A stretch of 7,685 nucleotides of DNA from Candidatus Helarchaeota ASGARD archaeon Hel_GB_B (GCA_005191425.1 SUPR01000131.1:1-7685), one strand, 5' to 3'; counted from the first letter of the stretch, positions 2,415 to 6,048 are shown. Notes: a model not told the origin generated them from the letters alone. Program-made: numbers and translations.

Positions 2415-3632
2415 TTAATATTTTCTAACCTTTTCCTCTTCTTTTAATCTTCTTATCTCTCTTGTAATTGCTGGCACGACTTTATGTAAATCGCCTACTA
2501 TTCCATAATGTGCGATTTCAAATATTGGTGCATTAGGGTCTTTATTTATAGCAACAATAATGTCTGAACACAATATTCCCACTTTATGTTGAATTGCTCC
2601 AGAGATCCCGCATGCAATATAAAGTCTAGGTGAAATTGTTTTACCTGTTTGACCCACTTGTCGTTCTGGGTCTATCCACCCTAATTCTACGGCTACTCTA
2701 GACCCTGCAACTTCAGCATTTAATTCTTTGGCTAAATCTTTGATAATCTTAAAATTTTCTTTGCTACCAATACCTCTTCCCCCAGCAACAACTATCTGGG
2801 CTTCCTCCAGATTAATCCTTTTTTTTCCGCGTTTTATTATTTTAACAATATTTGTGGAAATATCTGATTCTTTAAATTTACCTTCTATAATCTTAATTTT
2901 AGGCTTCTTGTCCATCTTTTTTGGAACTTTAAACATTCCTGGCCTAATTGTGCTCATTTGTGGTCTGCTATTTGGTGTTCTTATTGTAGCCATGATATTT
3001 CCTCCGAATGTGGGTCTTGTTTGTAATAATAGGTTTCTGGTCTCTTGGTCTATATCTAATCCTGTACAATCGGCTGTTAACCCTGTTTGAAGCCTTTTAG
3101 ATATTCTTGGTGCAAAATCTCTCCCAATTGGAGTTGCTCCTACTAACACTATTTCTGGTTTATATTCAATTATTAGATCTGTAATCACATTAACATAAAT
3201 TTCTGAATAATAATTTCGTAATAGCGGCGATTTCACATATATAACTCTATCAGCGCCATACATCCCTAATTCTTCTAAATTTTCATCTAATTCTGAACCC
3301 AACAAAATAAGTGTTAATTCAACTTTTAATTTATCTGCAAGTTCACGTCCCTTACCTAATAATTGATAAACATAATTCTTTATTTTATTGTTATAATGTT
3401 CACCTATTATCCAAACTCCTTTATATTGCGAAATATCGATTTTTTTTTCTTTTTTCTCGTCTTTAATTATTATTGCACCGACAGGACATGCTTCTACACA
3501 TGCTCCGCATAAAATACATTTTTCAGGAATTAGTTTTGCTTTTCCATCAAAAAGCGTTATTCCTCCATAAAGACATGAATTAATACAACTACCGCAACCA
3601 GTACAGTTTTCTCTATCTATTTTAATTGACAT
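2415..3632 (-). CDS. etfA: Electron transfer flavoprotein alpha subunit with N-terminal 2x[4Fe-4S] ferredoxin domain
   Basis: N-terminal C10-C13-C16-C20 and C39-C42-C45-C49-P motifs. ETF alpha motifs LTADCT, RPTFGGN, VAGGRG, QVGQTGK, GISGAIQH and AINKDPNAPIF. Confidence 0.95.
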   Translation of the reverse strand: MSIKIDRENCTGCGSCINSCLYGGITLFDGKAKLIPEKCILCGACVEACPVGAIIIKDEKKEKKIDISQYKGVWIIGEHYNNKIKNYVYQLLGKGRELADKLKVELTLILLGSELDENLEELGMYGADRVIYVKSPLLRNYYSEIYVNVITDLIIEYKPEIVLVGATPIGRDFAPRISKRLQTGLTADCTGLDIDQETRNLLLQTRPTFGGNIMATIRTPNSRPQMSTIRPGMFKVPKKMDKKPKIKIIEGKFKESDISTNIVKIIKRGKKRINLEEAQIVVAGGRGIGSKENFKIIKDLAKELNAEVAGSRVAVELGWIDPERQVGQTGKTISPRLYIACGISGAIQHKVGILCSDIIVAINKDPNAPIFEIAHYGIVGDLHKVVPAITREIRRLKEEEKVRKY

Positions 3633-3642
3633 TTTTTATCAT

Positions 3643-4449
3643 CTACAAAATTTTGTCTTCCTTTAATTTCTGACATAAATCTTTTGCCACGTCCTCTATT
3701 GTACCAGATAATTTAATATATTCATTTTTTTGTGGCGGAATAAAAATTTTATAAACTTGAGTTCTTGATCCTTCTAACCCAATTTTTTGTATATCTGCAT
3801 CTAAATCTTTAGCATTCCAATGAACGACCTCTTTATAATCAAAAGCATCTACTATTCCAGAAATTGTTGGAAATCTTGGTACATTTAACTCCTTCAAAAC
3901 TGTAATAAGAACTGGTAATTTACACTCTATAACCGCTATTTCATCAGATTGAAAAATACTTTCTGCAATGATTTTATTTTCGCTTAATTCAACATATCTT
4001 ACATTTGTTATTTGAGGTATATTCAACTCTTCAGCTAATTCAGGACCAACTTGTGCCGTATCCCCATCAATTGCTTGAGCGCCACAAACTACGAGATAAT
4101 TTTTGGATTCTTCAGTTTCTTTTAAAATCTTCTTAATTGCTAATGATAAAGTATAGGAAGTAGCTAAAGTATCAGCACCACCAAAAGCTCTGTCTGTCAA
4201 TAAATAGGCCTTGTCGATTCCCATAGCTAGCGATTCCCTTAATATTTCTTCAGCTTGAGGTGGACCCATACTTAACGCAATTACATCTGCACCAGTATTT
4301 TCTTTGATTGATAATGCCAATTCAAGCGCATTCTTGTCCATAGGATTTATCATTCCGGGAACCCCTTCCCTGACTAATGTCCCTGTTTTCCTATCAATCT
4401 TCACCTCAGAAATTGCCGGTACCTGCTTAATACAAACAAAAATTTTCAT
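3643..4449 (-). CDS. etfB: Electron transfer flavoprotein beta subunit
   Basis: Motifs MKIFVCIKQVP, INPMD, SMGPP, DRAFGGADTLATS and QAIDGDTAQVGP. Ends 10 nt upstream of etfA. AAGGA precedes the ATG. Confidence 0.95.
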   Translation of the reverse strand: MKIFVCIKQVPAISEVKIDRKTGTLVREGVPGMINPMDKNALELALSIKENTGADVIALSMGPPQAEEILRESLAMGIDKAYLLTDRAFGGADTLATSYTLSLAIKKILKETEESKNYLVVCGAQAIDGDTAQVGPELAEELNIPQITNVRYVELSENKIIAESIFQSDEIAVIECKLPVLITVLKELNVPRFPTISGIVDAFDYKEVVHWNAKDLDADIQKIGLEGSRTQVYKIFIPPQKNEYIKLSGTIEDVAKDLCQKLKEDKIL

Positions 4450-4806
4450 TAGAATTTCCTTTTATTCAAATTAATTTTTAAAGATTGTTTATTATCCTTA
4501 AATTATTAATATTTATTGGTTTAAATACAAAATTCATTATATATATCAAAAATATATAATTTTTATTTTAAACTTTTTATGTCCTAAATTAAGCCAATTT
4601 TTTGTGCTCAAACCTTAAAAAACCTAAATAATATTTTTTCATCAATAATTTAAATATAAACGCTTAACTAATTTTGTTGAAATTATTTTCCAATAAAAAT
4701 TTTTTTCTAAAAATTATTAAGATAAAATATTATCAGAAAAAAATATAAACGAATAACGAATTTTTACCAAAATTCATATCCAATCAAAATCTTTTATTTA
4801 TATAAT

Positions 4807-4825
4807 AAAAAAGAATATAAAAAAA
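4807..4825 (-). terminator. Possible oligo-U terminator downstream of the ACAD gene
   Basis: T7 (4825-4819) and T6 (4812-4807) tracts on the minus strand about 40 nt after the TGA at 4863. Weak evidence in such AT-rich DNA. Confidence 0.25.
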
Positions 4826-4862
4826 TTAATTAGTATGTTCTAATTTATTTACAGTTCTTTTA

Positions 4863-6048
4863 TCAATGTATGTCTTTTAATAATCTCCTTGCTATCACCA
4901 TTCTTTGTATTTCAGAGGTGCCCTCATAGATTTTAGCCATATAATAACTAATGTTAAGATATTTCGGCCATCTTAGCATCTCTAAAATAACGTTCTACTT
5001 GGTATGCCTTCATTAGACCATAACCACCATGCACTTGAACTGCCATATGAGCGGCTTTCATGGCAGCTTCACTTGCCATTAATTTAGCCATAGACGATTC
5101 CAAGCCATAATCTAATCCTTGATCGCAAAGATAAGCTGATTTATAGGTAAGAAGTCTAGCAGACTCAATAGTGCAACCCATATCGGCAATTTTCCACTGA
5201 ACTCCTTGAAATTGAGCTATTTTTCTACCAAATTGTTCTCTTTCATTAGCATATCTTATAGATGCTTCTAAACACGCTTGTGCAAGCCCAACACATTGAG
5301 CAGCGATTATTATTCTTCCAAAATCCAAAATTTTCAATACGATTTTAAATCCATTACCAATACCGCCTAAAATGTTTTCTTTGGGTACTCTAACATCTTG
5401 GAACACAAGTTCTGAAGTATTTGAAGCTCTAACCCCTAACTTATCTTCTTTTACCCCTACGGAGAACCCTGGTGTATCTGTATCAACTATAAATACGGTA
5501 AAACTTGGGTGTTTGCCTTTCTCACCTGTTCTGGCTGCAACTAATAAAGTTTTAGCTATACCACCATTTGTAGCAAAAATCTTACTTCCATTTAACACCC
5601 ATTCATCACCATCAAGATATGCATTCGTTTCTATACCAGCTGCATCAGACCCTGCATTCGCTTCTGTTAAAGCAAAAGCACCTAACCGCTCACCAGTGGC
5701 TAATGGATATAAAAACTTTTGACGCTGATATTCATTACCAAAAATCCAAAGAGGATATGCAACAACACTACAATGTACTCCGACTGTAATTGCCCAAGAA
5801 GCATCAATTCTCCCAATTTCCTCTATTATTATTGCAAAACTAACTGTGTCATTTTGTAATCCTGCTCCTCCGTATTTTTTTGGAATGCAAATACCAAAAT
5901 AGTTCATTTTCTTCATTAATTCAAAAACTTTCTGGTTAAGTTCTTGCTTTTTATCACTCTCTTCCGCAATAGGTGCTATATATTCTTCGACAAATTCTCT
6001 GGTTATTCTCCTGATCATTTTCTGTTTTTCAGTAATTGAAAAATCCAT
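4863..6048 (-). CDS. Acyl-CoA dehydrogenase (short-chain/butyryl-CoA dehydrogenase-like), split gene: complement(join(4863..4932,4964..6048)), 384 aa after removal of a 31-nt intron
   Basis: Exon 1 has GAFALTEANAGSD, LNGSKIFATNG, KLGVRAS, REQFG, QVHGGYG and ERYFRDAK. The conserved C-terminus IYEGTSEIQRMVIARRLL lies in the +1 frame at 4931..4866, with TGA at 4865..4863. Start taken as ATG 6048 (MDFSITE), preceded by GTGGT. The ACAD family call is secure. The spliced model is a prediction. Confidence 0.9.
4933..4963 (-). other. Putative 31-nt bulge-helix-bulge (archaeal tRNA-endonuclease-type) mRNA intron, AAUAUCUUAACAUUAGUUAUUAUAUGGCUAA
   Basis: Outer helix AGAU(4973-4970)/AUCU(4931-4928). 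Central 4-bp helix GGCC(4969-4966)/GGCU(4938-4935). Three-nt bulges GAA(4965-4963) and AAA(4934-4932). Inner helix AUAU(4962-4959)/AUAU(4942-4939), then UAAC/GUUA closing an AUUA loop. Cleavage after the 2nd nt of each bulge gives GA|A AUC UAU GAG and restores the frame. Confidence 0.85.

Follow-up and report, generated by a model that had tools for sequence, protein, structure and literature searches.

In the searchable literature, bulge-helix-bulge (BHB) introns in archaeal coding sequence are known only from the crenarchaeal cbf5 gene, to which can be added an EndA site in the 5' untranslated region (UTR) of a Haloferax mRNA (PMC7714728, PMC2738675). The cbf5 intron splits the codon of the catalytic Asp, and cleavage of the motif takes place between bulge nucleotides 2 and 3 (PMC2738675). 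We found in the searchable literature neither BHB introns in protein-coding genes of Asgard archaea nor synonymous selection on BHB exons. Here we describe a candidate intron of this type, 31 nt in length, in a gene for an acyl-CoA dehydrogenase (ACAD) of the butyryl-CoA type from Candidatus Helarchaeota archaeon Hel_GB_B. The window, by which we mean the whole analysed stretch of 7,685 nt (SUPR01000131.1:1-7685), is contig C38 of a metagenome-assembled genome (G000; GCA_005191425.1) of 3.54 Mb, 28% GC and 94% completeness. The two exons can pair with each other in a 15-bp helix around the intron, and this helix, in our judgement, quite probably serves in splicing as a functional element of the substrate, which is this Asgard butyryl-CoA-dehydrogenase-like mRNA with a BHB intron of the EndA type.

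The interrupted gene and the fold at its junction

All features of the gene lie on the minus strand. Exon 1 (4964-6048) runs from the ATG at 6048 to the GA of a Glu codon (4965-4964), and its product matches Pfam Acyl-CoA_dh_N/M/1, i.e. the three ACAD domains. The best solved relative, with orthologue L004 as the query, is Bcd (5ol2_C, E = 1.6e-114); 4l1f and the SCAD structure 1jqi were also found. The unspliced frame ends at a TAA (4956-4954) after ...RDAKMAEIS, and the remainder of the protein is present in another frame from 4931. The ACAD C domain of the unspliced open reading frame (ORF) ends at 133 of 150 profile positions, and IYEGTSEIQ is supplied by exon 2 (4863-4932), whose first nucleotide completes the Glu codon and which encodes IYEGTSEIQRMVIARRLLKDIH and ends with the TGA at 4865-4863. 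The 31-nt insert shifts the frame by +1 and is missing from about 125 orthologue alleles; its excision (4963-4933) rejoins the frame to give ...RDAKMAEIYEGTSEIQ..., which matches these intron-less alleles. Exon 2 includes the Glu codon of the YEG motif (GAG, 4925-4923), as located by tblastn and by alignment to the Bcd and SCAD structures. This Glu, which in SCAD, MCAD and Bcd serves as the catalytic base, is encoded in exon 2, and the unspliced mRNA therefore cannot yield an active enzyme.

Around the insert the RNA is predicted to form a complete and canonical hBHBh' motif, with the outer helix AGAU/AUCU, the central helix GGCC/GGCU, the bulges GAA and AAA, and the inner helix AUAU/AUAU. In the minimum free energy (MFE) fold the exon-1 strand of the outer helix (4970-4973) pairs with 4931-4928 in exon 2, i.e. 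the Ile codon ATC and the first position of the Tyr codon, and the exon-1 strand of the 4-bp central helix (4966-4969; third position of Met plus the Ala codon GCC) pairs with the intron strand at 4935-4938. The two three-nucleotide bulges, at 4963-4965 on the 5' side and at 4932-4934 on the 3' side, have their predicted cuts between 4964 and 4963 and between 4933 and 4932, respectively. The intron delimited in this way (4933-4963) contains the inner helix (4962-4959/4942-4939) and a small hairpin (4956-4953/4948-4945).

Outside the motif, the exons form the long helix that we call the clamp. The 5' arm, UAUUUUAGAGAUGCU (4989-4975; codons Tyr-Phe-Arg-Asp-Ala), pairs with the 3' arm, GGCACCUCUGAAAUA (4922-4908; Gly-Thr-Ser-Glu-Ile, GGC ACC UCU GAA AUA), at 14 of 15 positions, comprising 12 Watson-Crick pairs and two G-U pairs (U4984-G4913 and U4975-G4922), with one A4979.C4918 mismatch. 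This pairing had been pointed out in an earlier note on this DNA as an extension of the 4-bp outer helix over a small internal loop, and it is reproduced exactly both in the sequence and in the MFE fold, where the connection is a 1x5 internal loop (A4974 opposite AUGAG 4927-4923). The register of the helix sets codon against codon, such that the third position of a codon lies opposite a first position, and its second position opposite another second position. The codons of the 3' arm are the reverse complement of UAU UUC AGA GGU GCC (Y F R G A), and the conserved ACAD peptides YFRDA and GTSEI are therefore nearly antisense to each other. Second codon positions pair in four of the five codon pairs; the sole mismatch, position 2 of Asp against position 2 of Thr, is beyond repair by synonymous change. 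All ten third-position pairs are formed.

The codons AAG, GCC, ATC, GGC and ACC make up 0.156, 0.093, 0.112, 0.115 and 0.107 of their synonymous families in this genome (9-16% each), where the GC content at third codon positions (GC3) is 0.205, and the junction is the most GC3-rich 12-codon stretch of the gene (7 of 12). The previous description of these codons as atypical is thus correct, and so is the statement that their third positions make G-C pairs, all of which could be located in the fold: G4972 of AAG with C4929 of ATC, C4966 of GCC with G4938 of the intron, C4920 of GGC with G4977, and C4917 of ACC with G4980. The Met-Ala dipeptide is not an adaptation to the intron: throughout the Asgard orthologue group, with or without an intron, the residues are M-A or M-G, and M-A is ancestral to the group. 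What is unusual is solely the use of the rare GCC codon, in place of which GCU would pair too (U-G).

The hBHBh' motif together with the clamp is the MFE structure in both 96-nt and 251-nt contexts. The MFE of the 96-nt segment is -22.8 kcal/mol (RNAfold), with z = -3.19 against dinucleotide shuffles, of which 1 in 200 was as good. A synonymous null was built from 3000 recodings of the 21 flanking codons, sampled from genome codon usage with the intron fixed. The fractions of recodings as extreme as the native sequence were 0.0013 for the pairs in the structure, 0.013 for the MFE and 0.0003 for the BHB-constrained energy, and P(BHB), the thermodynamic probability of the motif, was 0.175 for the native sequence against a median of 1e-4 in the synonymous null. 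At the homologous positions of the intron-less ACAD paralogues of the same genome the stem is absent, with 6-8 of 15 pairs and an energy between -1.6 and -5.6 kcal/mol. A fold no better than that of synonymous recodings, or the same stem in the paralogues, would have spoken against selection in the terms of the earlier note; the statistical excess seen in silico and the state of the paralogues are the opposite of both.

A near-repeat, AUGGCCGAAAU / AUGGCUAAAAU (4961-4971 and 4931-4941), is found at the end of exon 1 and at the end of the intron. It is explained by the two-fold symmetry of the BHB, in which the GGCC central helix and the neighbouring AU steps are self-complementary, and it need not be a target-site duplication. 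A repeated or mobile element was also considered and rejected, since blastn-short of the intron with its BHB flanks against the whole genome gave chance-level matches only (22 nt or shorter) and no further copy of the 31-nt intron.

Intron-bearing and intron-less alleles

We searched 161 genomes of the class, 108 of which contain the orthologue, and a metagenome scan added two intron contigs. An intron at the identical codon is present in nine of about 135 Asgard orthologue alleles (7 of 108 genomes and the two metagenome contigs). In G000 it has 31 nt. The other six genome alleles have in-frame introns of 30 nt, namely L017 (G040:C13), L057/L160 (G096:C46, which is JAHPZE010000005.1), L113 (G048:C60), L159 (G140:C73), L161 (G102:C40) and L163 (G082:C379), as do the metagenome alleles L229 (SDBT01022586.1) and L241 (SDBV01029716.1). 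The 30-nt introns, which come from other genera of the Lokiarchaeia class, keep a UAA or UAG at the eighth intron codon in every copy, and the unspliced mRNA is therefore truncated and not read through as a 10-residue insertion. The protein sequence of exon 2 is perfectly conserved across the nine interrupted alleles. Glu (GAA or GAG) stands at the junction in 102 of 102 intron-less alleles, and the canonical cut would restore it as GAA in all nine intron alleles, though three of these have GAU (Asp) in exon 1. In a second orthologue copy in one genome (L117, G043:C179:1-1618) the frame is broken near residue 45 and TGA and TAA stops occur in frame, which may reflect damage to this copy or a mistake in the assembly.

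In the six 30-nt genome alleles, the full structure of hBHBh' plus clamp is 87% paired, against 30-43% at slid registers, and six of its pairs have changes on both sides, which was matched by none of 500 shuffles. These values indicate that the 30-nt insertions are a real structured intron family. Several of the 30-nt alleles have one mismatch in the central helix, i.e. a relaxed BHB. The 31-nt intron has a similar architecture, with an inner helix, a small hairpin and a GCU-AAA end; for a judgement on homology between the two the sequence is too short and AU-rich, and the register is broken by MAFFT.

To compare exons with and without an intron, the mature 51-nt segment from the Tyr codon to the Ile codon, in which 19 pairs are possible, was folded for every allele. 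The nine intron alleles fold at -11.6 to -17.2 kcal/mol with 16-18 of the 19 pairs. The median of 102 intron-less alleles is -5.2 kcal/mol; five of them lie at -11.6 or lower, and none attains the 18 pairs or the -16.1 kcal/mol of the window. For each of the nine, the intron-less allele that is closest in upstream identity forms fewer pairs and folds into a weaker hairpin, and for the window and its same-genus relative the difference is 18 versus 13 pairs. The same holds for closely related pairs of alleles: L057 and L238 are 96% identical upstream and 82% in the stem segment, L229 and L233 95% and 86%. A tree made from the upstream 347 aa only contains six changes of intron state, and all six independent pairs go in one direction.

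The association can be followed codon by codon when the seven genome intron alleles are set against the 102 intron-less alleles. GGC is used in 6 of 7 versus 6 of 102, ACC in 7 of 7 versus 12 of 102, a TCN (not AGY) codon for Ser in 7 of 7 versus 40 of 102, and GAT in 7 of 7 versus 72 of 102, and ATA, which disrupts the outer helix, in 0 of 7 versus 20 of 102. Third positions of the stem codons are more alike among diverged intron alleles (identity 0.65) than among intron-less pairs (0.53), and third positions just outside the stem have no such excess (0.50 for distant intron alleles versus 0.54). The exon helices are 87% paired versus 28-51% at slid registers. The outer helix is formed in each of the seven aligned intron alleles, one of its pairs undergoing a GC/AU/GU exchange, and within the clamp an AU/CG exchange is seen between position 1 of Arg and position 3 of Ser (AGA-UCU versus CGN-UCG). 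When the intron of the window was grafted into the exons of relatives, P(BHB) fell from 0.19 to 0.083 (L004), 0.007 (L220) and 1e-13 (L002). The comparisons thus indicate a functional coupling between exon helix and intron, which need not mean that the helix was constructed by selection after insertion.

Selection on the clamp and other explanations

Several observations weigh against the clamp as a selected, working part of a splice substrate. Splicing itself is predicted from the sequences. The intron alleles are partly dependent on each other, as the intron is transferred by recombination along with 200-350 nt of its surroundings, and the common GGC-ACC-TCN codons may be due in part to shared descent; the well-supported branches of the upstream tree leave three independent pairs. 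Covariation within the exon helix is weak, with two double-change pairs and a score that was reached by 45 of 500 shuffles, and the exon-helix signal is mostly conservation. The compensatory changes proposed as a check in the earlier note are thus present in the 30-nt family as a whole, and weak in the exon helix itself. Several mismatched 30-nt alleles have a low P(BHB), a value that is unreliable for this family since the central-helix mismatch is enforced, and the energy model alone therefore does not predict cleavage. The 31-nt intron of the window is a singleton whose own structure is without covariation support, and the same-genus genome G001 (88% aa identity) has no intron, and its helix is poor, at -2.4 kcal/mol with 13 of 19 pairs. 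That the intron is maintained rather than recent, as previously argued, is accordingly not shown for this lineage. Between the window and G001, L220 and G002-G005 the nucleotide identity is about 75% and synonymous sites are saturated, and for this reason no ancestral states or order of events can be given for the codon changes of the window. Finally, some intron-less alleles have a nearly equal helix (L012, -13.5 kcal/mol; L125, -13.4; L004, -13.1; L039, -14.4).

Such near-complete helices, to which L157 can be added, would be expected at a permissive site, where introns arrive or are imported at random and survive only if the codons already form the clamp, and where the helix drifts off after intron loss. 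One example is L004 (G002), which comes from the order of the window and reads AAG-ATG-GCT-GAA-ATC-TAT-GAG-GGC-ACC; it is intron-less and yet has AAG, ATC, GGC and ACC, and it keeps the P(BHB) of 0.083 given above with the intron of the window. The protein motifs alone provide four of the five second-position pairs, and Asgard tRNA introns have been reported to be gained repeatedly where a BHB can form (bioRxiv 10.64898/2026.10.13.758758). On the other hand, the introns are 30-43% diverged and their flanks are saturated at third positions, yet every tunable stem position is paired, and maintenance beyond an entry filter is therefore needed. We regard the permissive site as a rather unlikely account, and it should be added that it and selection on the clamp are not mutually exclusive. 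Of the earlier note's proposal that synonymous selection keeps the fold, the link between stem and intron and the dependence of the stem on codon choice are supported; selection after insertion and the establishment of introns only where a helix pre-exists cannot be told apart. With moderate confidence we favour selection on the codons after insertion, the remaining probability falling to the helix as a precondition for intron establishment.

A further explanation is that the intron and its exon flanks are a cassette of single origin, spread by homologous recombination, in which the rare codons are identical by descent and uninformative on function. L057 is indeed a mosaic. Its 5' 850 nt are 98% identical to the intron-less L045, and its 3' 350 nt (intron and exon 2; alignment columns about 850-1215) are 93-97% identical to L161 and 65-82% to L045; the introns of L057 and L161 are identical. 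Homologous recombination therefore switches the intron state along with the flanks. As a general explanation of the codons we nevertheless find hitch-hiking quite unlikely, given that the window has the same codon set around an intron of other length and sequence, that the excess similarity of third positions is confined to the stem, and that the Arg/Ser codon pair covaries. Chance together with protein constraint, by which the stem would be a by-product of the YFRDA and GTSEI motifs and codon noise, has in its favour that these motifs are nearly antisense and that the intron-less baseline is already 9-15 of 19 pairs (median 12). It is very improbable in view of the synonymous recodings (p about 0.001), the paralogues with 6-8 of 15 pairs, and the position of all nine intron alleles in the top few percent. 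Least credible of all is that no splicing occurs, and that the gene is either read by programmed translational bypassing of the T4 gene 60 type or is in decay, as a pseudogene of which a 3' fragment is left. The Ala codons GCC (4968-4966), for take-off, and GCU (4937-4935), as a possible landing codon, lie within the near-repeat described above. Bypassing from GCC to GCU would however yield MAK-IYEG, with Lys at the position where the intron-less alleles without exception have Glu, and the 30-nt family is without matched take-off and landing codons. The conservation of exon 2 in the interrupted alleles also argues against this account, and it is very unlikely that a random insertion would be surrounded by a perfect hBHBh'.

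Splicing machinery, genomic setting and known systems

The enzymes for removal of a BHB intron are present in the genome. G000 encodes two EndA paralogues (on contigs C36 and C98; PF01974/PF02778) of about 195 aa, each equivalent to one repeat of the two-repeat enzyme, and RtcB (C105). Asgard archaea are reported to have an (alpha-beta)2 EndA with an L1 loop (PMC5829648), and the two paralogues would fit such an enzyme. ARAGORN detected 6 tRNA genes in G000, and Rfam RF00005 gave 15 above the gathering cut-off, nine of them 82-122 nt long. Most of the tRNA genes are probably heavily interrupted, or absent from the assembly, and EndA probably has many BHB substrates in this organism.

A strict hBHBh' scan of the genome, with relaxed motifs outside its scope, returned 38,555 geometric matches. 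Of these, 304 extend an ORF, nearly all being AT-rich chance motifs that fuse neighbours, and the ACAD site is the only one with three central-helix G-C pairs and clear homology across the junction. Three other candidate strict motifs, C176:+:1750 (57 nt), C182:-:49835 (35 nt) and C39:+:2606 (32 nt), are so placed that their removal would lengthen an ORF of over 400 codons; most ORF-extending motifs of this kind in the AT-rich genome are chance.

In the mechanism that we propose, the pre-mRNA would fold such that the clamp steadies an otherwise weak and AU-rich BHB core. It would act as the anticodon stem does in a pre-tRNA, both splice sites being kept in hBHBh' geometry within a long mRNA. 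The heteromeric EndA would cut both bulges, at 4964/4963 and at 4933/4932, and RtcB would ligate the exons with release of the 31-nt intron. The predicted join in the mRNA is that of ...GAUGGCCGA to AAUCUAUGAG..., which can also be written as ...AAGAUGGCCGA to AAUCUAUGAGGGC..., and the spliced product would read ...RDAKMAE-IYEGT..., with the catalytic Glu from exon 2. The clamp has two sources, the nearly antisense peptides YFRDA and GTSEI, and the setting of every synonymously tunable position to pair by means of rare G/C-ending codons. We would expect splicing to require the clamp, and purifying selection at synonymous sites may be what keeps it.

The genes downstream of the dehydrogenase, on the same strand, encode ETF-beta (3643-4449), which follows directly, and ETF-alpha with an N-terminal 2x[4Fe-4S] ferredoxin domain (2415-3632). 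The order dehydrogenase, ETF-beta, ETF-alpha is the layout of Bcd/Etf-type, possibly electron-bifurcating, complexes. A spacer of 415 nt (4450-4862 of the window) with about 17.5-21% GC separates the ACAD stop codon from the ETF-beta start codon; in the relatives L002-L005 and L016 that start is only about 10-20 nt past the stop. No ORF, Rfam match or terminator was found in the spacer, in which promoter-like sites are no commoner than in shuffles, and Rfam and ARAGORN scans of the window gave no match.

It is tempting to speculate that 30-31-nt BHB mini-introns are in active turnover in Lokiarchaeia-class Asgard archaea, by gain, loss and transfer as a recombination cassette that brings its own exon clamp, and that the coding sequence co-evolves synonymously to stay spliceable. 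This wider view is tentative and, as a whole, doubtful. If true, it would be the first time that a system of intron-exon co-adaptation, and a spread of introns, are documented in protein genes of those archaea that are most closely related to eukaryotes. Splicing might also gate the production of active enzyme, the catalytic base being in exon 2. Apart from this wider view, the presence and absence of the intron among alleles of 96-98% identity, together with the mosaics, make intron gain and loss directly observable in the lineage closest to eukaryotes, and the nine interrupted alleles are natural replicates. On the mechanism proposed above, an mRNA can accommodate an intron of this kind only where the exon half of the motif is provided by its codons, a rule that predicts where EndA-type introns can be situated in coding sequence. 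The locus would then also be a clear instance of synonymous sites constrained by RNA structure.

The locus can be compared with several known systems. The XBP1 intron is 26 nt long; in HAC1 and XBP1, removal of the intron changes the frame, a protein endonuclease cuts at stem-loops, and in metazoans RtcB joins the ends. As in the window, the intron is very short and is situated towards the 3' end of the coding sequence. In HAC1/XBP1 the nuclease is however IRE1, the cuts are made at twin stem-loops and not in a BHB, and splicing is regulated by stress.

Closer in mechanism is the BHB element of Haloferax volcanii HVO_1309, likewise an EndA substrate in an mRNA (PMC7714728). That element is in the untranslated leader and is thus, unlike the intron of the window, free from frame or codon constraint. 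The BHB introns of archaeal and Asgard tRNAs have the same motif and enzymes as we describe here (Marck and Grosjean 2003; bioRxiv 10.64898/2026.10.13.758758). They likewise derive the outer helix from exon-exon pairing, in the anticodon stem, they are located where the exons permit the motif, and their gains are repeated and lineage-specific, as here. Unlike in tRNA, the exon helix of the window is written in codons, limited by the protein and reached by synonymous choice, and the host is a translated mRNA.

The nearest relative is the intron of the cbf5 pre-mRNA in Crenarchaeota (Watanabe 2002; Yokobori 2009, PMC2738675), which is also a short BHB intron that interrupts a protein-coding gene. 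In both cases the intron adjoins the codon of a catalytic residue, such that the unspliced mRNA gives no active enzyme, a heteromeric EndA is predicted to cut between the second and third bulge nucleotides, and the distribution is patchy with inferred gains and losses. The differences are that cbf5 encodes a pseudouridine synthase in Crenarchaeota, in another regime of temperature and GC content, and the gene of the window an acyl-CoA dehydrogenase in Asgard archaea (Promethearchaeota), and that the hBHBh' of the window is fully canonical, relaxed motifs being the majority in cbf5. In the searchable literature, cbf5 is not described as having a long helix between the exons that is tuned by rare synonymous codons, or as spreading by recombination. 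The machinery and the motif are thus already known, and what is new here is the host lineage, the gene, and a codon-encoded exon clamp with recombination-borne turnover.

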